This document shows, in pieces, positions 3,389 to 61,000 of a stretch of 63,791 nt of DNA. The number at the start of each line of letters is the position of its first letter. Positions within the stretch are counted from its first letter, which is position 1. The DNA is from Chiloscyllium plagiosum (lineage: Eukaryota): contig NC_057718.1 of assembly GCF_004010195.1 (NCBI RefSeq), forward strand, positions 89,817,497 through 89,881,287. Direction: 5' to 3'. The notes under the pieces are model-generated. The model saw only the letters and a program-made list of their open reading frames with translations, made no database searches and was not told the origin of the DNA. A program made the translations under genes and the position numbers.

Positions 3389-3394
3389 CGAGGG

Positions 3395-9629: not shown

Positions 9630-10940
9630 TTGATTTGGTTTGATTTATTGTCGTCAGGTGTACCCAAGTAGAGTGAAAAGCTTTGTTTTGCAAACAGCAT
9701 AGACAGATCATAACAGATCATAAGGACACACAGATCATAGGGTGCTTTAACAGAGTGAGGCACACAAGGTTACGACTGCACAGGAGGTGTGCAAAACAAG
9801 ATCAACATTAGATTTGAAATTAGCGAGGTCCATTCAGATTCAAAAAATGTGGTGCTGGAAAAGCATAGTGGGTCAGGCAGCATCCGAGGAGCAGGAGAGT
9901 CAATGTTTCAGGCATAAGCCCTTCACCAGGACCAAGACACAAATAGCAAGTGGGACAGAACATCAGCACATCATCAGAGGCTCACTGATGATGTTACCTG
10001 TCATAGTGACGAAACGTCTGAGAACAAACCTACCAGCTCAGTGAGCAAACCTGAGCTACAAATCTTCTCTAAAATCACATTATGTACCCAGATAGGATGC
10101 TTTCTATGGTGTATCTGTAAAGGTTGGTGAGGGTCCTCATGACATGCTGAATTTCCTAAGGCACCTGAGGAAGAGAAGGCATTGTTGTACTCCCTTGACC
10201 ATCTCATCTACATAGGAGGCCCAGGACTGATTATCGGTTATCGTCACTCCCATGAGCTTGATGCTCTCGACCCTCTCCACCTCAGCTCCTTTGATGTAGG
10301 TAGGAGCGTGTCCTCCTCCTTTCTTCCTGAAGTCAATGATCAGTTTTCTTGTTTTGCCAATATTTACAGAGAGGTTGTTATCATTGCATCACAACAAGCA
10401 CTCTATCTCTTTCCTCCATTCTGATTCATGGTTGTTTGATATTCAGCTACCATGGTGGTATGCCAGCAAACTTGGAGATGGCTGTTCATGTGGCATTTGG
10501 CTACACAGTCGTGGGTGTACAAGGAGAACAGTAGGGGGCTGAGAATGTAACCTTGTGGGATGCCAATGTTGCGGATTATCATGGAGGAGGTATTGTCGTC
10601 TATCTTCACTGATTACGGTCTGTGGGTCAGGAAGTTTAGGATCCAGTTGTAGAGGGCAGAGTTGAGACCTAAGTCTTGGAGTTTTGAGATTAGTCTGGAA
10701 GGGATTATGGTGTTGAGGGTGGAGCTGTAGTCGATGAATAGCAGCTTGATGTAAGTGTCCTTGTAATCCATATGTTTCAGGGATGAGTGTAGGGCTAGGA
10801 AAATGGCATCCGCTGTGATCCTGTTACATTGGTAGGCAAATTACAGGGAATCGATGCAGAGCGGGAGGCTAGTATTGATGTGGGCCCTGACCAGCCTCTC
10901 AATCCACCTCATGATTATGGAGGTCAGAGCCATGTTGACT
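9630..10940 (-). mobile_element. Rex1/Babar-like non-LTR retrotransposon RT fragment with nested PLE relics
   Basis: Minus-strand IGIPQGYILSPLLFSLYTHDCV matches the Rex1/Babar RT motif GxPQGCVLSPLLxxLYTHDC. Confidence 0.7.
9981..10022 (+). ncRNA. Minimal type-I hammerhead ribozyme motif in a PLE terminal repeat (9930-10078)
   Basis: Stem I CTCA/TGAG, core CTGATGA plus T, stem II GTTAC/GTGAC, GAAA, palindromic ACGT, cleavage triplet GTC (10016-10018). Confidence 0.75.
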
Positions 10941-10943
10941 GAC

Positions 10944-11152
10944 GAGAGTGTGGTGCTGGAAAAGCACGGCAGGTCAGGCAGCATCCGAGGAACAGGAAAA
11001 TCGACGTTTCAGGAGCCCTTCATCAGGAGTGAGTCCTGTGGGCCAGAGGCCGGGCAGCCTCCTGCTCCTCGGATGCTGTCTGACCTGCTGCGCTTTTCCA
11101 GCACCACACTCTTCAACTCTGATCTCCAGCATCTGCAGTCCTGACTTCCTCC
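10944..11152. mobile_element. Fold-back PLE-derived element, family B (GTGCTGGAAAAGCACAGCAGGTCAGGCAGCATC)
   Basis: Inverted arms of ~50 bp. The minus strand has CTGATGAAGGGC...GAAACGTC, and the shared tail is CTGATCTCCAGCATCTGCAGTCCT. A half-copy lies at 9848-9932. Confidence 0.75.
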
Positions 11153-12503: not shown

Positions 12504-13094
12504 CACGGTTTTTGTGTCTGTACTATTTCTAATGTGTGTAGCAGAAATGTTGACGCGACTGGTTTTATTTTGCATCAACTGGTTTTATTTAGTGAACTGT
12601 TCTGGTTGCCCCACACAGGTGACAAATGTGTTTGAACTTGCAACTGTTTGCAAATGGGTGTAGCCATGACAAGTTTGCTCATTGTTTCCTGAGTCCACTT
12701 TTTCATCAGGTAGTTGAAGGTGAGCCGGGATAATGGAAATTGGAAATACGATGGTCCAGTCAAGTTTATCTAGTGGCTAGTCATCTTAGTCTGGCCCAGG
12801 ACTCTGTCATCTCTCCTTCAACCAACTGTCTACACCCTCCGACCTAATGGACTGCAGTCCAGAAGTACTTCAGTGTTATAAAGAACTTTGGGTCCTTCCA
12901 GGATTTGACAATACAGGCACTCAATTTGACAAATTTCCAACCAATACGGTTAAATTCGTATTTCACGTTTAATGCAAATTTTGTGGCCAATTAAATTTTC
13001 CATCTATTTTTCCATTAAAATATCTATCTTCAGCAGTTACTCCAGTGTGATGGAGATTCCTATTTGTATTTTCACACTCTCTAGCTTGTGAGTC

Positions 13095-13520
13095 AAAGTT
13101 TAACCAGTGGCAGTACTGAGGAAGGTCTGCAAAGACTGTAGTGCAGTCTTGCAGATGAGATGTTAAACTGAGGCCCCTCACGTGGAAGTGGAAGATTCTA
13201 CCCCACAGTTCTGACGAATCTCAGAATAATCGCAGCACACAATGAGGCCAGTCAGTGTCTTTGCCCTTGTCTGAAAAATGTGTTGCTGGAAAAGCGCAGC
13301 AGATCAGGCAGCATCCAAGGAGCAGGAGAATCTCCAAGGAGCTGAAGAAGGGCTTATGCCCAAAACGTCGATTCTCCTGCTCCTTGGATGCTGCCTGACC
13401 TGCTGCGCTTTTCCAGCAACACATTTTTCCGCTCTGATCTCCAGCATCTGCAGCCCTCACTTTCTCCTTTGCCCTTGTCTGCAGGAAGAGCAGGGAAGTA
13501 CCCCAGGTACTGGCTCCTGA
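13095..13520 (+). mobile_element. Deu-domain SINE (SacSINE1/AmnSINE-like) remnant, split by a PLE-derived insertion
   Basis: GCAGTACTGAGG...CAGATGAGATGTTAAACTGAGGCCCC...GAAGAGCAGGGAAGT matches the recalled Deu-domain consensus. Confidence 0.6.
13274..13466. mobile_element. Fold-back PLE-derived element (family B) with a 15-bp TSD
   Basis: Arms 13274-13332 and 13370-13428 (~59 bp, 1 mismatch). TSD CTTTGCCCTTGTCTG at 13259-13273 and 13467-13481. Hammerhead relic at 13342-13369. Confidence 0.85.
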
Positions 13521-13839: not shown

Positions 13840-14030
13840 TCAAAAACAAAAATTGCTGGAAAAGCTCAGCGGGTCTGGCAGCATTTGTGAAGAGAAACCA
13901 GAGTTAACGTTTCGGGTCCAGATGCAGTCCCGAGGAAGGGTCACCAGACCCGAAAATGTTAACTCTGATTTCTCTTCACAGATGCTGCCAAGGCCTGCTG
14001 GGTTTTCCCAGAAATTTCTGCTTTTGTTTC
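13840..14030. mobile_element. Fold-back PLE-derived element, family C (AAATTGCTGGAAAAGCTCAGC...GTTAACGTTTCGGGTC)
   Basis: Inverted arms of ~75 bp with a central GAGGAAGGGTC-ACCA-GACCC-GAAA hammerhead-like relic. Related pieces at ~17665-17765, 39480-39570, 60320-60490 and 60690-60830. Confidence 0.7.
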
Positions 14031-15237
14031 TGACAGTCCAATGGGGTTTTCGCAATTGTACAATTACAGATATTGCATGTTACAATTGCTGCTAGCAAAC
14101 TTGCAAATTGACCAAAATATATGTGCTTTGTAATTCTTGTAAGGTCAAGGTAAAATAGCAAATGAGAGGCTGGGGCAGGAACATATTTTTTAATCCTTAC
14201 AACTCATCACGTGTCATCAGATCTAGTCTTCAGGCCCACAGGAAACATTGTTGACAGCATCTGGGCATGAGAATGTTTAACGGAATTTGGATAGTATAAG
14301 GGTGTGTTTTAACCCCATGGTTTAAACAAAGAACTCAACTAATTATTGGACATTTTGCATCAAAGAGAAATTGTTATGGAACACCAATGTTGTGTCGATT
14401 TACCACCCAGGTCTTTTCCTGGCTTTTAAATATGCCATAAAAAGACTCAGCTACAATCGAGAACTGCTGAGTTTCTCCAGCAATTTCTATTTTTGTCTCG
14501 ACAACAGTTTCTTTTTGGTGCCAATTAGAGCTGGGTCAAGCTAGCACTTGCCGGTGTCTGTCTAATTCCTTGAGTTTAAAGTAAAGTATAAATATATATG
14601 TAAAGTATGCATTTAAAGTAGATGCTTGTGTAAATTGGGGTTCGTGGAATGATGCTGTCAGATGCTTATTTGAATTTTCTTGCTTGCACTTTTAAGTAAA
14701 AGGAACCTTTTCCATAAAACTTGAATTGTTTGTTCTGGGTGCTCAGACTCAATAGACAGTTTGTTTTGTCGAGAGTGTGGCGCTGGAAAAGCACAGTAGG
14801 TCAGGCAGCATCTGAGGAGCAGGAGAGTCAACGTTTCTGGCGTAAGCCAGAAAGGAATGGAAAGGAATGATCCACAAAACCTTATAGTTGTCATAACTAC
14901 TTTCTTTGCTCTGGGTCCACATCATGATTCTTTTTAAAATTACTTCAGTTTCACAATTTGCCACAGTGTGAATTGCACCCACAACCTCTGAGTTAGCAGT
15001 ATAAGGTCAGAACCACTAGGTTAACATCCCTTTGTAATGGCCATTGCACTGAAGTTTCCAGTGAATCTATCTTACAACAGGATGCAGAGAATGTTGCAAA
15101 GTGATTTAAGACCTTGCTGTTGAATTTGTAACTGGAACTCCTGACATTTGGTTGCCAGAGCAGAGAGAACAATGAAGCACTGAACAGCACTAACCTCTCG
15201 GTGGTATCTGTTTGCTCACAGGACAAGTTGATGTGAA

Positions 15238-15338: not shown

Positions 15339-18300
15339 GTGAGTGTGAAACGATGCATGGGGAAGTTTTGCGAAAAGTTCCAGTCTTGATGTTATTGGAA
15401 ATGGCAGGTATTTGTCACCTTCCGTCTTTAGGAGGGAGTTTGGGTGTCTGTTTGAATCGGTGTGCGACAATATGAATTATTTGGTGCAATAGTAAAGTGA
15501 ACAGTGAAACCTGAGGGAGGGTGGAGGGGGAGTTAGAAACCTCAAACTTGGAAGGTGTCAGGGGAAGTCGGTCGGCTGTTTGTTTTTGAGAAAAAAGTGA
15601 GATCTTTTTGAGTTTTTATGGTATATTGAGAAAGTTACAATAACTTTTAAAAAAAATACCTGTTAGGCAAGAGGGAAGATGGAAACATATATAAACTGGG
15701 ATTAGTCCATTGATACATTTGAGTAAAAGGTTCCTTTTACTTAAAAATATGAGCAAAACAAATATAGTTGTAAGGATAGTCTAGGGAGGCAATAGCCTAG
15801 TGGTATTATTGCTTAGCTGTTAATCCAGAGATGCAGGGAATATTCTGAGGACCTGGGTTTGAATCCCACCATGGCAGTTGGTGTAATTTGAACTCAGTAA
15901 AATCTGGAAGGAAAAGTCTAACGATAACTGTGAATCCATTGTTGATTGTCGGAAAAGGCTATCTATCTGGTTCACTAATGCCCTTTCGGGAAGGAAACTG
16001 CCTGGTCTGGCTACGTGTGACTGCAGACCCCCAGCAATGGGGTTGATTTTTAACTGTCCTCTGGGCAATTAGGGATGGGCACTTAATGCCGGTCTGGTCA
16101 GTGACACCTTCATCCCGTGAATGACTAAAATAAAAAAATCGGAATTCATTGACTGCTGTGTGGCAGGAGTCTCTTTTGAAATATATCAAAAAAAATGTTG
16201 GAAAAGGAATTTGCAGGGCTATGGGGGAACAGAAGGGATTTCTATCTCAAAGAGCTGGCTTAGGCATGATAAGTTGAATGGTTCCGGGGTGGACAATTAC
16301 AACTTCACCCTCAAACTGCCGTTAGCTTTGCTCCAAGTAAGTTGTTATCTGTAGTTTTGCAAGCCGCGTTTTGAAAGCGCAACCTCGGAACTGGAGCTGC
16401 GCAGTTCTACGTGTTTTGTTTGAGGTTTCAAAGTCACAAAGTGGTTTTGCACTGCCTCGCTGCCGGGTGAATTGTCTGAAACTGAGTGAATCACATGAGT
16501 TCACTTCGGCTGCTGCAGGCAGAGCTTCAAAACATTTGAAGTCAAGGACCATATTTTCTAACCCTTCACTTGCAGCAGCAACAAATCAAAGGGCTTGCTG
16601 GTTTCAGATCAACTGACAGGTGATGGGAATTTCAAATCACTAACTGTGTTATTTGTTGAAGCACTTAAACAAGACCAATGTTAACATACAATGAAATGCC
16701 AGCGACACGGAACAGAGAACTGTAGAGACATTTTAGGACAGAGACTTTGTGTGGCTGTAGACTTCGTAACCAGTGTTGGTGATTGAAACTGAGAGGATAT
16801 CAGCATTTAAGAATGGGTTATGTAGATGGGTTGACCGAAGGACAGGAACAATGGCAAATGGGAACACATTATCACTACCATGATCCAGGTGAGTGAGAGA
16901 CACTGGAAGATGTACCCTTTGTCAACTGGTCTGCTGAGCTCTAATATGAGGGCCAACAGTTTGAGACAGAGTTCTGGAATGAGTTCCTTTCAAAAATGGA
17001 ACTAAAGGTGACCATCTGACAGTATTGCCACAAAGTAATTGCAGTGTGTACCATCTACAAGATGCAATGCACAAAGTCACCAAGGCTCCTTAGACAGTAC
17101 CTAGCAAACCCACTATCAACTGGAAAGACAGGGCAGCACAGAACCTGCCAGTTCATCTTCAAGCCAGTCACCATCCTGACTTGGAAATATATCACTTGTT
17201 CCTCCAATGTCACTGGGTGAAAAGCCTGGAACTCCTTCCTTAATGGCATTGTGGGTCTTTCTACAGGACATGGATTACAGTGGTCCCAGAAGGCAGCTAA
17301 TTACCACTTTCTCAAGGATCGCTAGGGGAGATGGATAATAAATGATGGTCCGGCCATGGCACCCACCATCGCACCTCCATACACACCAAGCCTTGTAATC
17401 CCATGGGTTGCTTTCACCATGGCCAAATCATTTCCATCCACTATTTGGCCCCATTAGCAGCTTCTCTCTCCTCCCAAACTCACCATGATCCACTCCTTTG
17501 TCTGTCCATCTGCTGTTCTCACTCTCTGAGCTCTATCTATCATTTATTCCTCCTCCACCTCTTTACTCTCTCTCCCTCCCTCTCTCTCTCTCTCTCTGTA
17601 TATGTGCGTGTGTCGCATGCACTTTTACACTCTCAGACACAGCAAGTCCCTCCTACCCGCAGGTAGTCCTGAAGAATAGGCCCCGAATCCAAAATGTTAA
17701 CTGCTTTCTTATCACAGATGCTGCCAGGCTGTGTTGAGTTTCTCTAGCAACTTTTGTTTTTGAATAAGATCATGTATTGCATGGGGATTTAAACAGTCAT
17801 TCTTTCTATTCTCATCACGGTTGTTCGTCCTCTCAATTCCTGAAGCCTGGGTCTCTGTGTTGGGCTGTGAATCTTTCAGGGACAGCAATCCTCTGATGGT
17901 TGGCCATTCTTGATCCTGGATGGTGAGTGGTAACCAGTCATTCAGTGGTGGGATCAGCATACTGTTAACCTTTACACAGATTCACCTTGCAGCACAGACT
18001 GCAGAATAATAAGGACCAGGAACCCCAACTGATTGCCTTGCCCCTCCACTCCTACCCCTGTCCTGAGGAGATCAGTTGAGCAGTTCTGCCTGCCATCCCT
18101 CTATCAGGAATTTTATCTCTGCAGGTCACTGCCACAGTAATGGTGTATCCTGTGGACAATTCCCTGTGCAATTCACATCAGCTATGGACATTGGGCGAAG
18201 TTTCCGATCACTAATAAGAGACCTATGGTATGTTTAAACAATAAAAGTATGTGCTAACTATGCTTTTTGTTCTCTTGTAGTAAAAATCACCAATGGCACA

Positions 18301-21300: not shown

Positions 21301-24300
21301 TCTAATTTGTCTGTTGGTAACTGATGCACGAGAGGAGCAAAGGCTGGGAAGTGATGGAGGGAAATGGATGTTAAGAGGGATTGTGATCTGAGTTTGGCAC
21401 CTGGGAGACTTTCAATGACAGGGGATGAGGCTGAGATGCCTTTAGCAAGGGAGTTGCAGAGAGTAGTTTGTGTGGTTAGTTCCAATTGTTCTAGCCTTCA
21501 GATGTGATCGATCACCTGCACCCAGCGAGTAGCTCTGATTATTTGAAGAACGTTTTAACTCTCTGACTTGGACAAAGTAAAGTTTCCACATTCTGAAGTG
21601 TGGAAAAAGCCCAGCCGGTCAGGCAGCATCTGACGAGCAGGAGGGTCAACGTTTCGAGCATAAGCTCTTCACCAGGAATGTCATTCCTGATGAAGATCTT
21701 ATGCTTGATCTCCAGCATCTGCAGTCCTCATTTTCTCCTACATTCAGATGTTGTTTCCACTTGCGATGTTCCTCCTTCAGAAGGAGAAGCTTATCTAACG
21801 GCGTTATAACAGCTTAATGTTGGCTCTGTGCCAGCAGTGTCTTGCTTGTGTTTAAGTAGTTCTTTATTGTTTGAGTTTTGACAGCAGTTCCTTTTTTGAG
21901 AAGGGAGTTGGAGAGGGGTGGGAGAGGAGCGGGAGGTGGGGAATGCTGGTGGTCACAGTGATTGTATTTCCAATTTGTAACCTCTACAGCGGAGCAAACT
22001 TTGAAATAGCCATAACTTTTCTGCGAAGTCATATCTTTTTTTTTCTTTTTCCCCCTCAGATGGAGAGTGAAACCTGCAAAGTTCCTCAAAATATTGATTA
22101 CTGGACAGTTCATGGCCTTTGGTGAGCACATATCTACGTTCACATCCTATTCCAAGTAATGTAAATTGCACAACTCCTCGTTCACCATCTGTGTTGGGTA
22201 TTACCATATCCAAAGCACTCCACAGCCATTGAAATCTGGCAAGAAAGGCAGGAGGCCGGGAGAACGCAGCAAGCCAGGCAGCATCAGGGAGGTGGTGAAG
22301 TCAACGTTTCGGGTATGACCCTTCTTCAAGGTTGGGCGTATCCCCAGCCCTGAAGAAGGGTTACACCCACAACGTCGACTTCTCCACCTCCCTGATGCTT
22401 GCTGTGCTCTCCCAGCCTGCTGCCTGTCTAATTTGGATTCCAGCATCTGCATTTTTTTTTGGTCTCAAATGAAATCTGTCGTGCAGTCACTGTTGGTTCG
22501 TAGGCCTATTTGCACCCAGCAAGATCCCACACACAGCAAATGAGATGAATTACTAACTAATCTGTTTCTTGCTGGTGGCATTTGAGAGACAGCAGTGTGG
22601 AAAAATTCACTTGTTCTTCCTTTGACTAACTCCAGGCAATCTTTTCTGGCCCTCAGCCCAGCCCCTGAGCAAGCCCCTCAGTTCAATGCTATTATGGACG
22701 GGCGCATCCAGCCAAGTCTGCATCCCACGAAGGGAATAAACAAAAGAATTGGGTCTTCATTCCTTTACCGCAAAGACACTTCACTTTTTTTTCTTTTAGT
22801 CACGTCCCAGGGTGTGACCATGCACAGGTCAGGGACTTGGAGTTTGGTTGCAAGCTCAGGAAATTAAGTTCAGTAAAATCTAATCCTCTGTCATGAGACA
22901 AGAGAAAAGCAGCAGAAAAAGCAGGCTGTTATCCAAAAGCCAACTTGTTCACAATTGTCTGAGTTGACATGTGACTCCAGTCGCGTGCTGTTGAAGTGTC
23001 CTCGTCAGTTATTTTATTTGCACAATAAGTCACTTGACCAGCTGAGGAAGAATAATAAGTAACCCACATCCTGAACAGCTTCTGGCAAAATCCACTTCCT
23101 TTAAATGTGTGCACAGGGGGTCATTGCTTGGCCAACTCCCATTGAACATCATTACTTGGGTGGGGGAATAGCTCAGACTCCACTGCATCCTTAAGAAATC
23201 CACTAACCAAAGCAAGCAGCAACTTACGCAGTGATCCACTTTTGAGAGATTTTAACACTGCAACAGAATTCAGTTGTAACGAAATATTAAGGATTATAGT
23301 CAGAGTTGTACAGCACGGAAACAGGCCCTTCAATCCAACTCGTCCATGCCAACTAGATATCCTAAATTATTTTAGTCGCATTTGGCCCATATCCCTCTAA
23401 ACCCTTCCTATTCATATTCCCATCCAGATGCCTTTTAAACGCTGTGATTGTACCAGCCTCCACCACTTCCTCTGGCAGCTCATTCCATACACGTACCATA
23501 CTCTGCGTGAAAAAGTTGCCCCTTAGGTCCCTTTTATGTCTTTTCCCTCTCACCTTAAACCTCTGCCTTCTAGTGCTGGGTCTCCCAGCTCAGGAAAAAG
23601 ACCTTGACTATTCACCCTATCCATGCTCCTCCTGGTTTTATAAACATGATTGCAAGGGAAATCAGAGGGATATTTTTTTCCTCCTTCTGCCGCAGATAGC
23701 AGTTTGAATTGGAGAATTTCACACATTCGCCTCCTCCAACGAGCACCAATTTTTCAATTAACATCAATGTTGTTCCAGATGGAGGGAGCAGATGACTGAA
23801 TGTCAGGCCTCCAAAATGAGATTTGCGTACAGAAGCGCAGGCAAAATGTACCAACTTGACCCAACAACGTGGCAACAATTGAGATTAATTTGTTGTCTCA
23901 GGTGTTTATTTGTCTCTTTTTCTCTCTCCTTTCTTTTCATCTCTCTCTCTCTCTCTCTCTCTCTNNNNNNNNNNNNNNNNNNNNNNNNNNNNNNNNNNNN
24001 NNNNNNNNNNNNNNNNNNNNNNNNNNCCCCCCCCCCTTAATTTGGGCTAAACGATCATATCTTCTGAGTGTCAAAAATCCAGATTTTATTAAAAATGAAG
24101 AATTTAAAGGTGAATCGTTAACCTGCCTTTACTTCCCTTTATTTCGAGCTTTGATTTCAGAACAATCTTAGTGTAACAAACAGGCTTGCTCAACACAAAA
24201 CAGGACCTGATTGCATGGGACTAGTCAAACATAAGATATGGGAGCAGAAGTAGGCCATTCAGCCCATTGAATGAGATTACAGCGATCTGATAACCCTCAA

Positions 24301-30300: not shown

Positions 30301-33300
30301 TAATCTGCACATCCCTGAACACTATGGGGCAATTTAGCATGGCCAATTCGCCTAACCTACACATCTCTGGATTGTGCGAGGAAACTAATGCAAACTCAAC
30401 ACAGTCGGCCAAGGCTGGAATCAAACCTGGGTCCCTGCTGCTGTGAGGCAGCCGTGCTAACCACTGAGCCACCATGCTGCTCCTTGATGTAGCCATTACT
30501 GTTCAGGCTCACATATGGAGGAGGTCCTCTGGGCTTGGTGACTTACTGCTTGCATTTACACAGCACCTTTTAACTCAAAAATAAAATCCCAAGGCGCTCC
30601 TTAGAACTTTACTCAGACGTGGGTACCAAGATGGAGGAGGAGATTTTATGAAAGGGACCCAGATTTCTGGTCAAAAGGGGTTCAGATTTAAGGAAGGCCT
30701 TGAAAGAAGAGAGGTAGCTGTAGAGTCAGATCTTGGCACAGGCTGAATGTGTCAGAGTGTGGCACTGGAAAAGTACAGCAGGTCAGGCAGCATCCAAAGA
30801 GTAGGAGAATCGACATTTCAGACATAAGCCCATCATTAGGAAACATCGATTCTCCTGCTTCTCGGATGCTGCCTGGCTGGCTGTGCTTTTCCAGCATCAC
30901 ACTTTGCAACACTGATCTCCAGCATCTGCAGTCCTCATTTTCTCCTCCAAGCTGGTAAAGCAATGTTGGAAGAGTAAGAAAAACTGTCAGCAACATAGAG
31001 TGTAACCTGGCCTGTAAAGATGGAGATAGGCTGCTCCCATTAACCACATCCACCTCTCTGCACAGGAAACACGAGTGGGCGAAACATGGAACCTGCGCAG
31101 CTACATTGCAATCCTTGAACACCCAGGAGAAGTACTTCAGCAAAACACTGGACCTGTTCCATAAAACCGACCTGAACAGGTAACCCCCACTTTAAATCGA
31201 TTTCAGGCTCTTAGCCAAACCCTTGCAAATGCTTTTAAAGCAGACCCGAGTGGAATTTTCTGTGTTTTTTTTTTTAACCAATCTTTCGACCTTTCCAAAG
31301 CCAAGGGAAAAATCCCCAAGAGGTTTCAATGTATAAAATGGGAGCGTTAGGAGTCCATTTGGCCCCTCAGGCCTGCTGTGCCATTCTTTGTGTATACAAT
31401 TCCACGTTAACATGTACTCTTGATAACCTTTTGATTCTTTTTGCCGAACGACAATTTATCCATTTCTGCCTTGGAATGATTTAATAATCCTGGTTCCACC
31501 ACTTCCTGAGGCAGGGGGTACCAAAGCAACATATTTGTTCATTTCATCCGCCATTAACTCTCCATTTTCACTCTCTAGAGGATCAACACTTTTTTTTGTT
31601 CTTTTCAAATACCCACAGAAACTCTTGCTAGCTAGCTGACTGTCATACATTTTCATATATAGACAGTTCTTTCTGATGGTTAACTTTTTGGTCATTCCTT
31701 ATATTCTTACCAATCATCTGACCTGCCACTCATCATTGCACAGTTTTATGCTTTTTACTTCAGTTTGATGCTTTCCCTAACTACTGCAGCTAACCATGGA
31801 TTGTGGGTCCTCCTCTGAGAATATTTTGTAATGGCAGGTATATGCACACAATCTGAGAGATCTCCTTAAATATCTCTCTCTACATCTGCATTAGTCTATC
31901 CATTAACCTGGTTCATTACAGTAAGTTCAGCTTTCATACTGAAATGGTTGCCCTTAGTTAACATTAGTCTCAGACCCATTTTCCCCCTTTCCAACCAATG
32001 TGAATTTCAATGGCATTGAGTTCACTGCTACCTTGGGATGCCTTTACACTGTAGTCATTAATTAATCCTATTTCATCAGACAATATACAGTGTCATAGCA
32101 TGCAATACGGTTGGTTCCAGAGCGTGCTACTCTAATAAACTATCTCAAAGACTTTCTATGAGCCCCTTCAGCTACTGATACTGCCTAGGTGTGTTTTGTC
32201 TCATTTGTTGGTTTGTATATTAAAATCCCACCCAAGATTATTGCCATGACTACAGTAGAAGCATTCAATATCTTGTATACTTTATTTTTTATATTCTTGT
32301 ATTCTTTGTCCCACATTGGGGTTACCATTAGGGGCCAGTCAGTTGTTCCCAAGAGTATCTAAGAGCTCTCATGAGCTGTAGCCTTGATGCACAGTCCCCA
32401 TTATCTGCTGATCCACATACCACGAGGTTGGTCCCCGATCCCATTCCATTTTTCCCATTGTCTCGTCCAGTCTGCCTCGGTAAACCGATTGTAGCCCTCT
32501 GCTGCACAGAGGATTAGTACTGCTTTTTTTTTAATGCATAGGAAGTCCATGCCACGATCCCTCGCAGATAATGAAGACTGTGTACCTGTTCTGTAATACA
32601 TATTTATCTTTTAATTATTTTTTAACTGTGCCACCAATTTGTGTACTGTGCTGAAACTTCAGAATCGAATAGATCTTAACCATTTGCAAGATACTCACTG
32701 ACCACCTACCTCCTTTCCTTGTTCCACACCAAGAACCAAATGGTACAGCACAGGCAGCGTTGCAAAGCAAAAGAGAACAAACTCGCACCTCCTTTTCACA
32801 CCCTCTTCACCAAACTTCCCATTCCCCAAGCTCTCAATATAATTTCCTCAACTGCATTTGTTTGCCTCCTTGTATAAGCGGCTCTGTTCATATTTAAGTA
32901 CTTGAATGCATGCTCGTTGCCACAAGAACTCCAATCTCTCCCGTCCACTCACTTCCCAGTCACCTTTATCTCTCCCCCCCCTTCCACCTGCCTTTGAGCA
33001 TGTGAAACTGTAACTTAAAAAAGAACTCCATTTGCTCAGTCCTTCCACAGTGATGAGAATAAGCCTGATATCCATTGCCGTCCCGATTATATGCAGCAGA
33101 ACCTTTTGGCTATTTATTGTAATGCAAAGATTTATTTACTAACCTTTGACCATTTGTTTTATTCAGTGTTTTTAAAAAGTTTAATATTCTCCCTTCGTCC
33201 AACTATTATACGGTAAGGACTTATTGGTGTTTGTCCTTTTTCACTCCCTTGCTTTTCTGCTGAGTTACACAGTTGGCTGTACTTCTAACTATAATATTCT

Positions 33301-39060: not shown

Positions 39061-39940
39061 GACCAATTTTGTGGACTGAGCAGAGGTTGGAGATTCTGTT
39101 CTATTTGTAGGAATGACCCTAATCTTCCATTCATTCAACATGTAAAACCACCATTTCATGTTGCCATGATTGTTTCTATCCTATACCTGCTGCAGTATTT
39201 AACTGAAGCACAATATAACATGAAGGACTTGACATGGAGCTCAACAATTACAGATAAATGTTGCCACCATTTTGATTACACCCCTTCCCCCACTGTGTCA
39301 TATTTGCATATTGTGCTTCTCAGCAAAGGCAACCTGTTTCGACTATTCACACCTATTTTGTAACTATCACTTCTTTACTCCCGACTTTGTCTTTTGTTCT
39401 AGGCACCCTCAAGCTTCTTTTCTGCTTGCTCCCCCTCAGTCTTTGTCAACAGCATGAAAACATCACTTTTCCAGTCCCCTTCAGTTCTGAAGAGACTCAA
39501 ACATTAACTTTCTCTATCCACGGCTGCTGCCAAACTAGTTGAGTTGGAGCAGTTTAATTTCAAAATTCTAGTACTTTGCTATTGTCCTTGTTTGAAACAG
39601 TATGGATCAGTAGCAATTAGGCAACTTAACTCTTTCTACCACGTGAGCAATGCAACTTCCTAATGGACATTTTTAAACAGCAGGGGTGAGAAAGAGTTCC
39701 TTAATTTCCAGTTAAGGACAGTTGACTCATCTGACTCAAACTTCATTATGATGAGTGACTAATTCTCTAATAGTCCTAAGCAGTGGAACTCAAATGCATA
39801 AGCATGGTTAATAAACTTCCAAGCTTTTGTTCATTGTAGTATTGTTTTAAAAAATTCTCAAGGTCAAGGAGCAGGCTCGCAGGAAAGTAGTCTGACACAG
39901 AACAAACAGCCAAGAGGCGAGTCTGCTAGAATATAAGTGT

Positions 39941-43065: not shown

Positions 43066-46000
43066 CTAGGAAGGGAAAGGAAGAATAAAGTGATTACAAT
43101 CTGCACACAGCAGTTAAGTTTATCTTTAGAATGTGTCTGGATCTAGAAAGCCTATCACAATGTCTTTGCAATGCACTTCTGAATGGAATCTTGTATATTG
43201 AGGTGGGTAGATAACCAAGCATTGCTCATTTGTAAAGTTAAAAGATACAGGAGAATAGATTTGGAACAAAGCTCCCACATAATAATGGACCAGTTAGTTC
43301 TCCTCAATTCAAATAAATCAGCCGAAGGTCCCCTTTAAGACGGTAACTGCACTAAGGAAAGGGGTATTCCATTCCATCTGACTGAATCCATTGGACAGTG
43401 GCAACCAAGATCAGGAGACCTATTGGAAAAGGAAATGCAAATATTTCTGTTTACTGGGAAAATAGTTTTGTCTGCCTTCACCCATATTCCAGAGGAACAG
43501 ACAATGGCATCAATATGGGATGGTGGGGTGTGCCCTGCTTGTACGAATGAGAATGATGTCCACTGCCAGAGGTAGGAGCATCCAGAGTCTAAATTCATGC
43601 AGCAGCCTGCGCTGCAAGCATGTTCACAGTTTCGATTGAATGATTCAAGGTGTTAAACACCTTGTATACAGGACGAGAGAAGAGCGAGGAGGAAACACCT
43701 TCATCGCATGGAGGTTTCTTGTTACCCAGTAAGCACCATGGCCCAGCATCACCGTACCTGCCCTGACGCCTCCGACGCTCCTTCTTCTCCAGAATCCACT
43801 CTCTGCTTCTTTTTACAGGCTTTCCCTTCAGGTTTTTAAACCTCAACCTGCAGGCAAGAAATGGCAGCTTGCTCAGATATCTGAACCAACACTATCCAGC
43901 CGAATGCTCAGGGATTCGCTCGTTAAAAGCTTAATTAATGATTTGTTGTACTTTTTCCAGCACTATCCTTTTTGACTATCTCCCTGGACCAGGTTTCTTT
44001 GACCCTGGCAAAGAGCTTTTGCTTCCCTGATAGAGCTAATAAAACCAACAGGAGTGGGCCATTCAGCCCTTTGAGTCTGTTCACCCTTCAATATGATCAT
44101 GGCTAGTCATTTCATTCTGGCTTCCAGTTTTATTTCTTATCTTTTGTTTCTTTCTCCTGTTTCCCTGCTCAGGTTCCCATTGGCCCTGTCATCCCAGTTA
44201 AAGTTAAAAATCACAACACCAGGTTATAGTCCAACAGGTTTATTTGGAAGCACTGGTTTTCGGAGCACTACTTCATCAGGTAGTTGTAGAGCAGGGCCAT
44301 ACGACAGAATTTATAGCAAAAGATTAGTGTCATGCAATGTGTCTTATGGCCCTGCTCTACAACTACCTGTAGTGCTCTGAAAGCTAGTGCCTCCAAATAA
44401 ACTTGTTGGACCATAAACTTGTTGAGCTGAGACTGATCTTCAGCAAGTATGTGAAATGGGTGACAGTGAATCAGCAGCCCCCTTTACACAGTGCCCAAAT
44501 ATTTCCATTTAATCAGAATTTAGGTGTGTTATCAAACATACTGCAAGTGGAGGAGGAGGAGGTTTTATCGACAAACCTGACCCCACCCCAACACCATATC
44601 AGGGATTTCAGTGTGGCCTGAAGGAAGCAGCAGATGCAGACTTTCCCTCCTAACTGGGGAGAACTAGGGAGCACTGCCAAAGCCACTGACCCACTTATAC
44701 CAATTCATTTTGCTCTGCAATCAAAATTTCTGTCAAGATTCAGGACATGCGATGCAGGTGTCTCGCATTTGCTGTCAGGATGGTGTTGGTAGGATACTTG
44801 TTCAAATTGCTGCAGAACACATCCCTGATGTGTTCATTTGCCAGGGAATTCTAACTGAACCATTAAAGAGAACTTCACATTTATTTTACACTGACACTAT
44901 CAACGGCACAAATTGTAAGAGGCAGGAAAATGTGGCAACCAGCAGCTCAGGATTGGCACACCAGTTCAATTCCTCAGTTACTATAGGTCTCTCAGTGACA
45001 GACAGAAGGAGACTGCAACCCTCTCTGCTTTACACTGACAGACCTGGACAATCAGGCAATCACTAAATATCCTTAAGACTGGAGCATCACACAATAATCT
45101 GCAGTTCCCAAAATGTACATTTTACATCCTTTGAGGCACAGTGCACATAGTCAGACTGTTTCTGGATGCCAAGTAAAGATTTTCAGCTCATTTCGTACTA
45201 ACATAGGCCCATGATGCCATTCATGAGGTAGGTTCTCTCAGCACAAATAAGAAAGAGAAGCTGGGACCTCTCAAATCTATGTCACACAGGACATGCAACA
45301 TGCCACAGAGCTGCTGTATGAACTCCACCTATCTGAAACACATGCCAGCCGTGGCTGAAGTTAGCTGTAGTCTGTTTTTGAAAATGATCACTTTTCTTCT
45401 TAGATCGTCAAATTGCAACAGCAAATAATTGGGAAGAACAAACTAAAATCAGACTGGTACGTGCAGACCAATGCAATTTCAGAACACAGCAATCAGGAAA
45501 TCACAGTAACAGTCACTGTGGCTGTCTGTTAGGTGTTAATGCATAGTGAGGTCTGGCAGGGATGGTATAGAGTCAGGGTTAATTGGGTGAGGACAGGGTG
45601 TATACATATGGGGAGCATGTAATTAATGTGGGTTGAAGTTTTGATATGTGAACTGGAAATTCAATGATTGGAAAACATATATGACTGGACTCTCACCTGC
45701 ATTTTAACCTCTGATGTTTTATCGTTAGAAGCAGCGTTTTTAAAAAATTGATAAGTGAATTCTGCATTTCCAATCAACTGAACGTGGCCCCACATCCAAC
45801 AAATATTTACAAAACTGCATCGATATGGAATTCTGCAAATGTAACATTTCACTCAAATTAAGAGGTGAGCTCGTCTATAAATTTGACAAAACTTTCCTCA
45901 CCTTCCATTTCAAATAAACTGGGCAGCCCTCCCCCCTTAAGGTGAGGCCAATGCTTCTTCACTTGAAATTGGACTGAGAACCAGGGCTAAAGAGAATCTG

Positions 46001-49000: not shown

Positions 49001-52000
49001 GTCTAATCTGAAGTTGTGTCTCAAAAGCAAAGTGCACTGGGGCCATTGCAGTAACAAACTGAAAGCTCTCAAATTCAATTTTCACTCTATATTGAGAGAT
49101 CTTTTGGGGTACAGCTGCAACAATGGGGTTCATTTTGCCCAGGGTTAGAGAGAGGATGCAGTGGCTTCTACAAGAAGCACCTAGTTACCAGTTATGGGGC
49201 CTTTCATGGTAGAGAAGCTATTTGGAAATTATGTAGAGTACACTCTAGGAACCAGTTGCTATGGTACCATAACTGGATTGCAAATCTGTGGCTTCAGGAG
49301 AGGTAGCTTTATTACTCCCTTTTGAGACGATGTTGGATTTGCATCCAGTTTGAGGGTAGGTTGGAGCTGTGGAACATCAGCCACTGGGACAGGCTGCCTG
49401 TCATTATATAACTGTGGAACCTCAGTCCCCTGTGCAGACATTTAAAAACAACTCACAGGATCTAATGGATAGCCTTGCAACTAAAAACACCCAGTGTTTT
49501 TTTTTGAAAGCTCGAAGACAACAGTAAACAGAAATGAAATTCAAGAGCGGGATTTTTAAGGGTGCCTCTGCAGAGACTCAGAGATCAATGCCCTTGTTAT
49601 TCTGCAAAAATCTCAAGTTTTTAGATCAGGGTGGTGCTGGTTTTTAGATCAGGAATGATGAAGGGCTTTTGCCTGAAACGTCAAATTTCCTGCTCCTTGG
49701 AGGCTGCCTGACCTGCTGTGCTTTTCCAGCACCACTCTGGTTTCCAGCATATGCAGTAAGAATACTGGTCTGGACTGGACTGCCAGGAATCGGAGTGATA
49801 GGTCACAGGCTGAATGTTTTGGTCATAGAACAAATTCCTACAGTGTGGAAGCAGGCCACTCAGCCAATCGAGTCCACACCAGCCCTCTGAAGAGCATCCC
49901 GTCTAGCAGTGCTAACCACTGAGTCAATGGTCAAGTATAGGCAAGAGCTTTTGACTCAAAGTATGCCCACATCCCCTGTTTATACAAAGAACCATCACGA
50001 TAATCTTTAAATGGCAAACTTTGCTGCCATTTAAAGCCTTGAGGCACAATTTCTTCATGTCCGTTAATTGTACAGGCAGCCCTGGGAGAAACTCAAGCAA
50101 TGTAGAGACAAAACTCCATCTCAGCTGAGAATAAAAACATAGCTCATTATCATACCAGCACATTACAACGCAAAGAAGGACGAGCCTTCACCAATACCCT
50201 AATAAAAATATAATAGAGGAGTTACCATTGGCAGCTTTCCAGAGACTCCAGCAAATAAACACAAGAAGAATCTAAGAAAGAAAAAAAAAGTTAATACTGA
50301 GAAGTCATATGAGCACAATCTACAGAAAGGGTTTGAATCACTTGCAGAATGTTAGTATATTCTCAGAATGTCACAAAATATATGCTGGCCAATTAATTAC
50401 TTCTTGAAGAGGAGTCACTGTTTATATATAAAGAAACCCACCCTGAGCACCTTGTTTTGTCAATCCACCTTTCTGTTATACCCATATCATTGCTACCCTT
50501 ACACTAAGTATTACCCATATTTCTTTTCAACCAGAGAGCTTTCTCTGGAAGGAGGATGCACGAGCAGTCAATGAAGGGAGCGCAAGTGTGTGCTGTCTGA
50601 CATCCCATGTTGCAACAGTCTATGACCCATTTAGAACACCAGCTGCATGCCTAATCCTCACATGAGGCAAAGATCAGGAAATTCATTGTCAGAATGCTCC
50701 TAGCTTTACTCATTGACCAATCATCTGAGTAAAAATGTGTACATAGTGATGGTTCCTAAATCTACAACATGCCACAAACTCAAAAGACTGAACAGAGAAT
50801 CCACAAAGAATCCGCTGATTCAGATGGGCAGGGTAATGTGAGGGGAAGAGGCAGAAATAAATCTCAGAACACTCAAGAATTTGCACCAATCAGAAGACAA
50901 CTGGACATATCAAGACGGTCATCTGCTTAGACAATCAGTAAAGCCTTTAGTACTTTTACATGGAGCTTGCAAGCGAGCGCGGCATGCAGGATAAAGAAAT
51001 AACTCAGCTGTCCAAAATAAATGCTGCATTTATACCAAGGTGAACAGTTAGGCTGCTCCATCCATCGCTTTTACTGTACCAATGCCAGTTGCAACTTGTT
51101 CTGACAGCATTTCCAGCTGCCATTTTTCACGCTTTCAGGATGCTATTTTTTCAGGCGAAAGCAGCAGCTAATCTTGCACAACAGGATCCCTCAGACAGCA
51201 CTGAGATAATGATGAAATCATCTGTTTTCAGATGCTGCTTGAGGGACAGCTGTCCCACTCTTTAAATACTGACACAGGATACTTGACTACATCCAACAGC
51301 AGATGAAATGATGATTTACCATTATGCTAGGAAAAAGGAACCCCCAACACTGCAGCACTCCCTCAGCATTTCCCTGGAATGTTACCCTCGAACGGTGTGC
51401 CGTAACCACCAGTGGGGATAGCAGCCAAAATCCTCAGGGTTGAAGCACTAATCCAGTCCAACTGAGTGCTAATGGCTACAAGGTCCCTTAAAATCTTGTA
51501 GTTCTTCTAATTGGGAGGGCGGCCTAACTGCCTGTCTTTGTAGGCCTCAGTTATGTCCTGAGTGGGGTGCTGGAAAAGCACAGGTCAGGCAGCATCCGAG
51601 GAGCAAGGAGGTCAACGTTTCGGGCATAAGCCCTGATCTCCAGCATCTGCTGTCCTCACTTGCTCCTAAATTATGTCCTGGAAACCTAACAGAAAGGCAA
51701 GTGTTTTTTTTTTAAACTTAAATATCCTGTGGATCAAAGATGTCCCCAGCCACTTGGTCCCTGAACTAGTCTCCTCTCTACAGGTCTACAGTATCTGCAA
51801 ACTTCAAAACACCCAAAACGGGTGATGAGGAAAACAAAGTTAGGAAGCACTGGCTTGGATGTCGTGTTCATATCTCTCCGACACGCTATTGCCTGACTCC
51901 AGAAAGTGCGCTGTTCATCACGGAGCTAGGACCCGATAGTTAGAGACGAATTGCTTCACAGCTCAGGAATGAAACCACTTAAAGCAATGCCTCTTTCCTG

Positions 52001-58000: not shown

Positions 58001-61000
58001 GTGACAAGAATAGAGACTTGCAATACCGCACTAAAACCCAATTCAAATCCATTCTCTTCCAATGACCGGTTTTTAAAAATGGACATAGCTCTGGAAGGTG
58101 TTGGGTCAAGATTTATTTTTTTGATTAACAAATTAAGGGACTTCACCAGTCGTGTTATAGAATAGAAAACTTTACGAGTTTTGAGAAGATTTGTAGCTCA
58201 GGTTGACGTTTTAGATGTAGGTTTGCTCGCTGAGCTGAAAGGTTCATTTCCAAACGTTTCGTTATCTTACTAGGTAACATCTTCAGCGGACCTCATGCGA
58301 AGCAATGCTGAAAATTCCTGCTTTCTATTTATATGTTTAGCTTGGGACAGCAGCTAATGAACTTGAAAGACCCTATACAGACAATGAGCAAAACTAACGT
58401 CATTTACAAAATACCGTGCAAGGACTGTAACAAACACTACATTGGACAACCACCAGGATGCATGAATACCAACTAGCCACAAAAAGACATGACCCTCTCA
58501 CTAGTATCCTCACATACGGAGGAGGAAGGACATCACTTTGACTGGGATAATACAGCCATCCTAGGATGGACCAAACAAAGACACACACGAGAATTCCTAG
58601 AAGCATGGCATTCCAACCGGAACTCTATCAACAAACACATCGAGTTAGACCCCATCTACCACCTTTTGAGAAAAGGGGTAGGAAGTGACTTCACCACAGG
58701 ACATAACATCACCACAGGAAATGACATCACCAACCCAAAGAAAACCAAACATATAAATAGAAAGCAGGAATTTTCAGCATTGCTTCACATGAAGTCCACT
58801 GAAGATGTTACCTAGTAAGGTAACGAAACGTCTGGAAATGAACCTTTCAGCTCAGCGAGCAAACCTACATCCAGAAAACTTTATGTTTCAGGAAAAAGGT
58901 CTTGGCAAACACACAGACTCAGGTAAGGAGCTTCCAAATAAAGTGTAAAGCTACAGCCATGGCAATCACAACAGGGCGCTCCAACCTCAATTCAAGACAT
59001 ACTCTTCTGTACTTTTTTTGTCCAGTTTCCCTGTCATGGTTACCTTGAGGCTGCTGACCCATGCTGAATTCCAGCTAGTTCTACAACTTTGTCTGATCCC
59101 TATTAAGAAATGCATTGAGACCATACAAAGACTCATTGCATAGGATCCTTACAGCTAAGGACTGCCAATACCATCACTTTAGCCTGAACTAAGTGCAGCT
59201 ATTCAAGATGAAAGGCATCAGATCCATGGGATCTCCCAATTCCATTGAAATATTTTAAATTCCACCAAACCTCCTTCACCCCCACCACCAAATGAAACAT
59301 ACCAAAACTTAAATATGATAACATCCATGTTCTTCTACCTACACACAAGATCTCTTATTGTGGCTTGATGGATAAGACAAAAAGGTGGCAAAATACAAAA
59401 TGTGACAAGCAAGTCATACAGGGCAAGTGTTTCACATCTTGTGTCGTATGAAAATCAACGCCAGTAAGAGGCCAGGGAGCAGATTCAGAGCCCATCCCAG
59501 AGGATCAAGAGAACAAAAAGATAAATAACAACAGCTTCACCTCCGGGATGGTTTTCTCTGAAAATCCCCTGCAAGACTGTAAAAACTTAAGAGGACCCTA
59601 CCCAACATCTAACAGGAAGCATGGCTGATCTTCAGGTAAATGGAGTAGCTCAACAGCCCTTTCGGACATCTGGGTCTGGATTTCAATCATACGTGAGCTG
59701 TGAAGGGAAGAGTCACATTTTATTCAGGTAACCGGCTCACTCCAATCTGTTAATAAGAAGTTTTTTTTACCCCCATCTGTCCTTGAACTGTGAATGACAC
59801 CCACGAAGCAGCTTTTACTATCTGTATCGAATTGTCAAGAGAATTGAGAGGCTGCAGTTACATGAAGTCTGAGTTGTGCCTTCTTCCTCTCAAGTACGTT
59901 AGTGAAGATTAGATTCGATTCCCTACAATGTGGAAACAGGCCCTTCGGCCCAACCAGTCCACACTGACCTTCTGAAGAATAACCCAACCAAACCCATTTC
60001 CCTCTGACTAATGCACCTAACACTATGGGCAATTTTAGCATGGCCAATCCACCTGACCTGCACATTTTGGACTGTCGGAGGAAACTGAATCACCCGGAGG
60101 AAACCCACGCAGACACGGGGAGAACGTGCAAACTCCACACAGATAGTCTGTGGAGGCTGGAATCGAACCTGGGACCCTGGTGCTGTGAGACAGCAGTGCT
60201 AACTGCTGAGCCACCGTGCCGCCCTACCACTTGGGTTTTTGCAATAATCCTGACAGCACTCATTCGCCAGTCTGAATGCTACCAGATGGCATGACAAGGC
60301 ATCAGCTCAAATTAATATACACAAAAGCTGCTAGAAACACTCAGCAAGTCAAGCAGATTCTGTGCCGAGAGAAACTGAATTAGAGCATCAGGTTGAGATG
60401 GCTTTTCCATCCTTTCCAGTGAAACACCATCTCCATTTGAAACAGAGTTTCTCTCTCCACAGATTCTGTCTGACCAGTGAGGAATTTTATTTTTATTTCC
60501 AAATCCTGTGTGGGGGCTAAGTAGTCAGTAAAATATCACATTTACTCGCTACCAAAAGCAAGGCAGTTCAATTTCGCACATAACTCTCAACCCGAAACAA
60601 GGTAGCAAAGCTTCCCACCCTCTCCCCAACAATCTCCTTCCTGAAAATAGCAACTTTGATAGGTACCAGGTCCTAATTAAAAATTAAATACCACAGATAC
60701 AGGAAATATGAAGTAAAAACAAGAAAATGCTGGAGGAACACAGCAGGTCTGGTAGCAACTGTACAGACAGAATTAGAGTTAAACGTTTCAAATCCAATCA
60801 GTCTGAAGGTGGTTAGAAAACAGTGGGTCAGAGAATAGCAGGTCTTTTTATGCTGTTGATGGAGGGGTAGGAGTTACTGAGCAAAATAGTTGTGAGGGAA
60901 TTCAGAGCAGTGTGAAAAGGAAGCGATGTTAGCAAAGGCTCTCTCTGCTGACAGCAAAGTCAACAAGATATAAGTGGGGAAGGTGGGGACAGATGCAAGA

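Follow-up and report, generated by a model that had tools for sequence, protein, structure and literature searches.

Short fold-back insertions with hammerhead motifs in a shark locus are probably 5'-truncated products of Penelope-like elements

Many short fold-back insertions with hammerhead-like centres lie in one stretch of the Chiloscyllium plagiosum genome, which raises the question of whether they are mobile units in their own right or remains of larger elements. The window (the whole stretch analysed) is 63,791 nt long (NC_057718.1, 89,817,497-89,881,287, forward strand). Copies were collected within it by self-BLAST and arm alignments, and arm positions are given relative to the hammerhead core, a minus sign meaning upstream of the core. 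Twenty-two fold-back or arm copies were found (Table 1), belonging to five families: A (9 copies), B (1), C (6), D (3), and E (3). Two full inverted arms are present in 8 of the 22, one arm is mostly deleted in 4, and 10 have a single arm; two-armed copies, full or partial, occur in all five families. These counts bear out the preliminary description of this DNA, which had reported many short insertions with head-to-head inverted arms. The GAGC/GCTC type, listed there as a family of its own, is by arm alignment a variant within family A. The insertions had also been described as 100-250 bp long and without an ORF. Most copies are indeed only 90-230 bp and without coding sequence, but two copies are exceptions: 58176-58872 is about 700 bp long and has a GIY-YIG remnant, and 8207-8397 ends in ORF sequence. 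The latter, a family E copy, lies outside the range covered earlier (9848..60830).

Table 1. Fold-back and arm copies in the window, with the coding stretch of family E
Feature	Position	Strand	Description
Family E single arm	8207..8397	-	Last codons of Penelope/Poseidon ORF, degenerate hammerhead, tail-less end; tblastn with P0004 E 6e-09
Family A single arm	9843..9931	-	Tail-less end to -2; abuts family E copy head-to-head
Family E arm	9931..10076	+	-55 through intact core (9985) into tail; 19-nt deletion
Family A fold-back	10943..11152		Inverted arm +89 to -7; spacer about 25 nt; direct arm +33 to +126 with tail
Family D fragment	12684..12719	-	Self-BLAST E 0.001
Family A fold-back	13273..13467		Inverted arm +29 to +88 (98% match); 9-nt filler; direct arm +1 to +126 with tail
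Family C fold-back	13841..14030		Inverted arm +18 to +97; direct arm begins at about -5
Family C end fragment	14464..14503	+	Self-BLAST, arm alignment
Family A single arm	14770..14868	-	+91 to about -6; part of core deleted
Family C single arm	17664..17762	+	Hammerhead degenerate
Family A, GAGC/GCTC variant	21594..21738		Inverted arm to -5; direct arm -7 to about +17, deletion up to tail
Family B fold-back	22239..22469		Arms meet at about -10; tail at right
Family A fold-back	30752..30945		Inverted arm to -2; direct arm +22 to +126 with tail; short microhomology at joint
Family A copy	36789..36920		Inverted arm +47 to +1; end piece duplicated; direct arm +60 to +126
Family D single arm with TSD	37404..37490	-	Arm alignment
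Family C-like single arm, highly degenerate	39482..39561	+	Weak hammerhead score
Family D fold-back	44200..44424		Minus arm to about -60; plus arm from about -27, core partly deleted; AGCT 44382-44385
Family A copy	49626..49756		Inverted-arm remnant with duplication; direct arm +2 to +112
Family A copy	51561..51670		Inverted arm to +10, fused directly to tail
Family E insertion	58176..58872		Tailed inverted arm 58176-58343, GIY-YIG coding remnant, tail-less direct arm
Family E coding stretch	58339..58815	+	60% identity to P0004 over 186 columns, E 2e-64
Family C-like old fold-back	60321..60474		Arms of 29 nt still detectable
Family C single arm	60710..60789	-	Arm alignment

The stem II pairs proposed earlier were found in place: GGGC/GCCC at 13350, GAGC/GCTC on a minus arm with its core at 21675, GGGT/ACCC at 22329 (minus) and 22350 (plus), GGGTC/GACCC at 13938, GGAGC/GCTCC at about 37470 (minus), and GTTACC/GGTAAC at 58807. 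Both palindromes, ACGT and AGCT, are also present. A relaxed hammerhead scan of the window gave 7 matches, compared with 0-1 per shuffle in 6 shuffles. The parts of a minimal type I hammerhead (CUGANGA, GAAA, UH, a paired helix II, and a palindromic helix III) were found, and stems I and II differ in sequence among families while their pairing is kept. As stated before, most cores are damaged (15 of the 19 scored arms), and a complete core exists in 4. Family E has intact cores at 9985, 58286 (inverted arm), and 58799 (direct arm). Read majorities give a complete core in two more families, with G12 restored in family A and U4 in family C; in families B and D a complete core is obtained only by combining arms by eye. 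The view that the centres keep a hammerhead scaffold is right as to the stem pairs and palindromes; many centres, however, have no whole core because the arms are cut at differing points. In an Rfam search of the window up to E 1, no hammerhead family scored. The best matches were microRNA models reflecting plain hairpins, and a microRNA identity was rejected since all scored below the gathering threshold.

On the outside, the arms have two fixed end points, separated by about 36 nt, which are the pseudo-LTR end and 'tail' known from Penelope-like elements (PLEs). In family A the outer end lies at about +88 to +96 in 8 of 9 arms that are inverted or solo, and at +126 to +130 in 6 of 7 direct arms. 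Loose family A ends in RNA reads and contigs of two species pile up at the same two positions. A tail on one arm only is seen in families A (about +90 versus +126), E (58872 versus 58176, about 36 nt), and B (an extension on the right side), and is not distinguishable in C and D. Target-site duplications (TSDs) of 9-15 bp were found in 7 of 18 copies tested, a near match by eye included, and no exact match was present at the expected place in 11. Among them are the direct repeats of 15, 9, and 10 bp reported before (13259-13273/13467-13481, 22230-22238/22470-22478, and 51551-51560/51671-51680). The family E insertion 58176-58872 has an 11-bp TSD (58164-58174 and 58873-58883), exact TSD cores of 10 bp (36774/36918, family A) and 9 bp (37394/37493, family D) exist, and the family A copy at 21594-21738 has the 9-bp near-TSD seen by eye.

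On the inside, every joint in the window differs, and all nine family A inner configurations are distinct. The recurrent arm junctions expected of a unit transposing as such were thus not found. Neither was a strongly supported shared joint found among the best 15 of 675 joints in two public contig sets. These 15 include four strand-change rows, with at most 10 contigs per run and a depth of at most 236; for comparison, the summed depth of the family A arm exceeds 3 million and that of single-copy flank is 11-15 (contig depth does not equal copy number, one run was counted incompletely, and joints upstream of the examined stretch appear only as loose ends). Contig joints from a family A end to a family C end were set aside, as the intervening letters are unassigned and both families are dense.

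The position of the inner ends is another matter. In families A-C, one 12-nt interval, -10 to +1, takes in the ends of 8 of 11 inverted arms; the probability of this is 0.0004-0.02 under geometric truncation with a mean of 30-60 nt and 0.05 under the narrowest uniform model, the interval having been picked after viewing the data. Inner ends that are not spread speak against purely random truncation in these families. No family A copy in the window is clearly past about -8. Families D and E, which have the same layout, reach 27-460 nt upstream (family E arms start at -460, about -117, -57, and -55). The clustering in A-C may mark the 5' end of an RNA or a short non-autonomous master. Ends defined by ribozyme cleavage were also considered. 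The inverted arm of one family A copy (A13.3) ends exactly at the predicted cleavage site (+29), yet it is 1 of 20 arms and no matching joint is among the best 15 of 675, so this idea was not adopted.

A coding link was found in family E. Positions 58339-58878 match a Stegostoma protein model, P0004 (E 2e-64), which has reverse transcriptase (RT), HTH_animal, and GIY-YIG matches and reads on into the translated hammerhead. In the matching shark protein models the RT lies in one ORF upstream of the endonuclease; the window copy is truncated before it. The RVT_1 matches (P0008, E 3e-06; P0004, E 0.007) are below the Pfam cut-off, with a YVDD motif present, and the GIY-YIG match is likewise below it (E 0.0027) and was also made by Atlas. 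Pfam did not recognise the GIY-YIG pieces of the window taken alone, and a motif scan of the window for further PLE coding remnants gave nothing convincing. The window translation of family E has two cysteines between GIY and YIG (CCHH motif), and in P0004 and P0008, which match it, the HTH-EN region has no CX2-5CxxC linker. A CCHH GIY-YIG and the absence of this linker are given as criteria of the Penelope/Poseidon clade (PMC8557442); judged by these sequence features, family E belongs to the endonuclease-bearing PLEs of that clade.

Beside the arms of families A-D no coding sequence exists in the window. A partner search by translated frames, which covered family A, found none with word-based protein searches and full HMMER: two of 7 candidates were exonised host isoforms, 0 of 211 candidates qualified, and one was an unrelated fish NLR-like protein. 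Since this region may not be translated, these negatives are weak. When viral and metagenome contigs were scanned for exact family A patterns, 0 loci resulted. The full-length RT and GIY-YIG partners with the same termini that had been envisaged are represented by the protein link of family E, with none found for family A. Note that 579 RNA reads extend beyond the family A core on its upstream side and share a consensus there (agreement 0.48) over at least 30 letters, implying that family A forms the end of a longer sequence. The upstream consensus of family A fades in contigs within about 8-10 letters.

We consider the fold-backs to be dead-on-arrival insertion products of several endonuclease-bearing PLE families, each built anew at its target (probability about 0.8). 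Of the two origins suggested in the preliminary description, extreme 5' truncation of PLE insertions is favoured by the ORF link of family E, the layout of inverted repeat, tail, and TSD, and the complete read-majority cores in A and C. The RT/GIY-YIG protein would nick both target strands 9-16 bp apart, and each nick would prime reverse transcription at one of two internal RNA sites, the pseudo-LTR end or the tail about 36 nt further on. The two cDNAs would run back through the hammerhead and then stop early, in families A-C mostly a short way upstream of the core, where the copied RNA probably has its 5' end or a strong stall occurs. Repair would join them head-to-head into a hairpin with flanking TSD, and later deletions would erode one arm. 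The hammerhead itself would be a passive passenger, the ordinary minimal pseudo-LTR motif of the family. For an Anolis element it is described that both strands are cleaved and extended and that two internal start sites are used (PMC11167929). The TSDs, fixed outer ends, unique inner joints, family E link, and majority cores were seen in the present analysis; that the hairpin arises from two-strand priming, why synthesis stops close to the core, and that families A-D have coding parents are what we infer.

It is conceivable, though we think it unlikely, that families A-C are driven by an RNA of about 135 nt (a SINE-like PLE derivative or a run-off product), the hairpin coming from two separately primed cDNAs, each made on a different target strand. 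In that case the head-to-head A and E pair at 9843-10076 would be a two-template product of two PLE families, and how PLEs form their inverted ends could be tested on the very large natural record in shark genomes. In a related explanation, which we rate improbable, such RNAs, which would begin shortly before the hammerhead and reach to the tail, would originate from short non-autonomous masters that a PLE protein moves in trans. These masters could be SINE-like or derive from retrozyme-type head-to-tail pLTR arrays, and the hairpin would still be made at each insertion. Short masters keep some weight for A-C because the coding partner was not found and the inner ends cluster just upstream of the core. 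The rapid loss of the family A consensus in contigs fits them as well, and non-autonomous PLE derivatives are known (Chlamys/MRC1, PMC8557442; also bioRxiv 10.64898/2026.07.22.740005). Head-to-tail joints, from the tail end back to the core, occur in 39 and 17 contigs (depth 431 and 338), but this form is a small minority by depth. The sequence shared upstream by the 579 reads is at odds with a short master, as are families D and E, which share the layout while extending farther upstream, E with coding sequence. Moreover, if a normal PLE transcript is primed in its first pseudo-LTR, synthesis running off the 5' end would probably give the same clustering.

The other origin suggested earlier was a self-propagating, non-autonomous mini-element system, in which the fold-back itself would be mobile as a hairpin RNA or circle that is processed by its hammerhead and re-inserted whole, like a retrozyme. 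Many copies are short, two-armed, and bounded by TSDs, and some contig joints reach a depth about 20 times that of single-copy flank, so small groups of identical joints may exist. We nevertheless hold this origin to be very improbable. The window joints are unique, with no strong shared joint in the best 15 of 675. A head-to-head copy has at most one hammerhead per strand, yet a minimal hammerhead depends on a partner of the same sense (PMC4209133), and retrozymes consist of tandem repeats (PMC7229834). In predicted folds of head-to-head copies, the core or a helix I strand is usually paired into the long hairpin. The RNA data point the same way: 4044 reads lie on both strands, 97% of them continue into unrelated sequence, and they look like passengers in longer host RNAs. 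No pile of read starts or ends was seen, which is a weak test given that the data are one poly(A) single-cell library, blind to small or circular RNA. A self-propagating hairpin ribozyme element would be new if true, and the evidence is against it.

That these are MITE-like DNA transposons or microRNA-type hairpins with an incidental likeness to hammerheads has a negligible chance: long inverted arms, TSDs, and the Rfam result would suit it, but TSD length varies, single arms bear TSDs, stems I and II vary by family yet stay paired, the below-threshold Rfam matches are a plain-hairpin effect, and it is ruled out for family E by the remnant encoding a PLE endonuclease and for A-D by the one-sided tail and variable joints.

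The relevance of truncated PLE insertions of this kind is mainly for annotation. Such stumps are abundant in the Chiloscyllium plagiosum genome, Rfam does not recognise their hammerheads and proposes microRNA look-alikes, and pieces of them are exonised into host gene models. The formation of PLE inverted ends and the role of the hammerhead are described as not yet settled (PMC8557442, section 15).

Among known systems, non-LTR retrozymes (PMC7229834; Li et al. 2026, bioRxiv 10.64898/2026.07.22.740005) are similarly short, non-coding, hammerhead-bearing, and related to PLE pseudo-LTRs, and are reported in one chondrichthyan genome. Unlike the window copies, which are head-to-head or single, they are head-to-tail tandems with same-sense hammerheads and circular RNAs. 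No head-to-tail hammerhead tandem is among the 22 copies, and such joints are a minority in public contigs. A literature search for hammerheads of shark PLEs listed no paper on families A-E, and the part of supplement file 2 of PMC4209133 cited here names no shark among its taxa.

The minimal hammerheads of metazoan PLEs lie on opposite strands 100-700 bp apart (Cervera and De la Pena 2014, PMC4209133). The shark motifs share with them CUGANGAH, an extra base before G10.1, the G10.1-C11.1 pair, a helix II of 4-7 bp, the GAAA-CG-U-H palindrome, a helix I of 2-4 bp, many families per genome, and opposite-strand pairs. Family A departs from them in its helix I of just 2 bp plus one mismatch.

PLE insertions are described with an inverted pLTR, a 31-bp tail, and an 8-10-bp TSD (Arkhipova et al. 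2013, PMC3846280), or with an inverted 5'-truncated copy and a 30-40-bp tail at either end (Craig et al. 2021, PMC8557442). The shark copies have the same head-to-head inverted end, a tail on one arm at either side, a TSD (9-15 bp here), palindromic or microhomology joints, and heavy 5' truncation. They differ in being mostly 90-230 bp and non-coding where the published ones are longer, and in the clustering of A-C inner ends at the hammerhead, which the cited parts of these papers do not describe. Like PAc of Anolis (Frangieh et al. 2024, PMC11167929), family E has a C-terminal GIY-YIG, a pseudo-LTR hammerhead, and two ends bracketing the tail. PAc belongs to a different sequence family, and family E is known here from truncated copies and protein models. 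Head-to-head mini-insertions are not derived from two-strand priming in the cited parts of the PAc study. Family E has an ATG where stem II begins, which opens a frame of 35 codons running through the tail, and the PAc ORF likewise starts at stem II; the tail ends about 105 nt after this ATG in family E and 111-118 nt after it in PAc. The layout thus follows one known for the PLE class, and a separate self-copying mini-element is very improbable.

The window, DNA of vertebrate type with 43.6% GC, holds 22 copies of short, often fold-back inserts bearing hammerheads, grouped by self-BLAST and arm alignments into five families (A, 9; B, 1; C, 6; D, 3; E, 3). A relaxed scan for a core, paired stem II, GAAA, and a palindrome gives seven hits in the window and 0-1 in each of six shuffles. 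The fold-back hammerhead families proposed in a preliminary description are thus real, and the stem II pairs, the palindromes, and the direct repeats of 15, 9, and 10 bp that it named are present. Both inverted arms are complete in eight copies, one arm is largely lost by deletion in four, and the other ten consist of a single arm. A TSD is found in 7 of the 18 copies tested, one being a near match by eye. The cores are mostly damaged, as had been noted: only 4 of 19 scored arms have a complete core, and six degenerate arms mis-registered by the scoring script are also incomplete on inspection. Helix I varies in sequence by family with its pairing kept. In two subfamilies of family E it is UCCA/UGGA and CUCA/UGAG, both paired, while in family A it consists of only 2 bp and a mismatch. 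Families A, B, and C have the motif ATGCTGCC in common, and D and E are without it. The GATGCTG part of the A and B motif can base-pair with the tail sequence CAGCATC, and this pairing may form a second conserved RNA stem in these two families.

Positions of features in the window, including neighbouring repeats and host sequence
Position	Feature	Remarks
578-3400	47-nt tandem array	long; related but more diverged repeats continue as far as about 5900
9843-10076	family A arm head-to-head with family E arm	no TSD found there
9931 and 58343	family E arms starting at -55 and -57	different subfamilies; begin just upstream of a TATA-like run; two copies only
12200-12505	tRNA-like SINE	dispersed family, ~300 bp; presumably resembling shark HE1
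13332	inverted arm end, 13.3-kb copy	coincides exactly with the cleavage site predicted for the hammerhead (+29); 1 of 20 arms
13386-13452, 22395-22450, 13981-13990	motif common to families A, B, and C	
28610-28935	tRNA-like SINE	
30180-30490	tRNA-like SINE	
34600-34900	tRNA-like SINE	
36774 and 37394	shorter exact TSD cores	
49820-49930	tRNA-like SINE	
57749-57838	methyltransferase-like exon, minus strand	Pfam E 0.003, below cut-off; presumably resembling BUD23; ~340 bp from the family E insertion at 58.2 kb
58164/58873	TSD of 11 bp	in addition to the direct repeats of 15, 9, and 10 bp
58176-58872	full family E insertion	inverted arm bears the tail
59905-60230	tRNA-like SINE	

The outer ends of the copies are fixed and their inner joints are variable. 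Counting the C of hammerhead CUGA as +1, the inverted and solo arms of family A stop at about +88 to +96 in 8 of 9 cases, and the direct arms at +126 to +130 in 6 of 7. The preliminary description had distinguished recurrent from random joints, and no inner joint recurs in the window. All nine family A configurations are distinct, and their joints show short microhomologies, fillers, or deletions of later date; as pairs of inverted and direct inner ends, they read (-2, family E), (-7, +33), (+29, +1), (-6, none), (-5, -7), (-2, +22), (+1, +60), (-5, +2), and (+10, +92). The joints of families B, C, D, and E are again all different.

Public reads agree with fixed outer ends and variable joints. 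Four public runs were compared with positions 13335-14100 at 80% likeness; one of them, X22, contributed no reads. The contig sets of two species, organisms A and B, yield 130,593 and 110,176 records, so the families are abundant, depth being no measure of copy number. Loose ends pile up behind 13422-13427, the tail-less end, and behind 13468, the tailed end. The majority letters give an intact GAAA for family A and, for family C, an intact CUGA together with helix I. Four strand changes are among the best-supported 15 of 675 joints, in a count in which one run is incomplete and joints upstream of the stretch show only as loose ends. None of the four exceeds 10 contigs per run or a depth of 236 (286 where joints with intervening letters are tabulated), against a depth of 11-15 for the single-copy flank and of millions for the arm. 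Head-to-tail joints are a minority (39 and 17 contigs); those of family A, from 13468 to 13342, are seen in both organisms and may represent incomplete tandems or short arrays of a retrozyme-like kind. An organism B contig differs from 13447-13867 at 18 of 421 positions and covers 21 letters of the A tail and 27 of the C arm; this suggests that the A and C insertions predate the species split, but both lengths are under the tool's 31-letter bar. The single-cell RNA run X21, a poly(A) library, gives 4044 reads on both strands, 97% of which pass into unrelated sequence, and neither starts nor ends pile up in it. In this run 579 reads reach upstream of the family A core with a common 30-letter consensus (agreement 0.48).

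With a probability of about 0.8, the copies are insertion products of Penelope-like elements (PLEs), formed by a staggered cut, priming at two internal sites, and head-to-head cDNA joining by repair. The PLE protein would cut both target strands with a stagger, for which the TSDs are observed. Priming would occur at two internal sites on the RNA of the PLE, matching the two outer ends observed and the enzymology in PMC11167929. Two short cDNAs would then be joined head-to-head by repair; the unique joints are observed, and priming on two strands is presumed. Arkhipova et al. (PMC3846280) propose self-priming on an antisense template, which the data here do not tell from two-strand priming. On this reading the hairpin is a by-product of insertion. 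Each strand of a copy has one hammerhead at most, minimal hammerheads depend on a partner in the same sense or on assistance from a protein (PMC4209133; PMC11167929), and predicted folds trap the core or a helix I strand within the long stem.

In families A-C, 8 of 11 inverted arms stop between -10 and +1. In simulations, with this interval chosen post hoc, such clustering has a probability of 0.0004-0.02 under geometric truncation with a mean of 30-60 nt and of 0.05 under the narrowest uniform model; it does not fit plain random truncation. It might come from reverse transcription that is primed within the first pseudo-LTR and runs off the 5' end of the RNA, from RT stalling at the ribozyme, or from a short non-autonomous master. 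In Penelope of D. virilis, this region contains an internal promoter as well as a 5' intron (PMC2377424; PMC4209133). A short master behind families A-C would account for these stops; it is an unlikely source, keeping some weight because protein searches with family A, the only one of A-D searched, found no coding partner. The clustering and the A/E head-to-head pair, which either joins two families or is one insertion nested in another, are the sole parts deserving genome-wide attention.

Family E is a truncated coding PLE. Its translated piece is present in all eight hits among 29 candidates, seven of which are named shark models. The named proteins nearest to the window belong to carpet sharks, Chiloscyllium and Stegostoma. 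P0004, a Stegostoma protein model, has RT, HTH, and GIY-YIG parts, after which it continues into translated hammerhead sequence. Its identity to 58339-58878 is 60% (E 2e-64), and the family E copies at 8.3 and 9.9 kb match it too. Pfam scores for its domains are below curated cut-offs, and the Atlas look-up agrees on GIY-YIG. Since the CX2-5CxxC linker, a criterion for PLE clades (PMC8557442), is absent upstream, the sequence points to the Penelope/Poseidon clade. The four arms of family E begin at -460, about -117, -57, and -55. A reading frame of 35 codons begins with an ATG where stem II starts and runs through the tail, in the way reported for the Anolis element (PMC11167929). Pieces of these PLE families also lie within or at the end of seven gene models of the host (P0003, P0005, P0006, P0007, P0009, P0011, and P0012; six are named shark models), either by real exonisation or as an annotation artefact.

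Described PLE insertions have an inverted 5'-truncated copy, a tail at either end, and a TSD, which is the pattern of the window (PMC3846280; PMC8557442). Minimal hammerheads, with many families per genome and opposite-strand pairs 100-700 bp apart, were reported in 2014 (PMC4209133), and no shark appears in supplement file 2 of that paper. Non-LTR retrozymes are tandem repeats (PMC7229834) with a proposed origin from PLE pseudo-LTRs, and are found in one chondrichthyan (bioRxiv 10.64898/2026.07.22.740005, whose supplements may list families related to the shark ones). The window copies lack this tandem arrangement. Dimeric PLE hammerheads are reportedly the subject of a 2017 paper. None of the papers found in literature searches describes these shark families. 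The window copies are real and mostly ordinary, being new members of a described kind.
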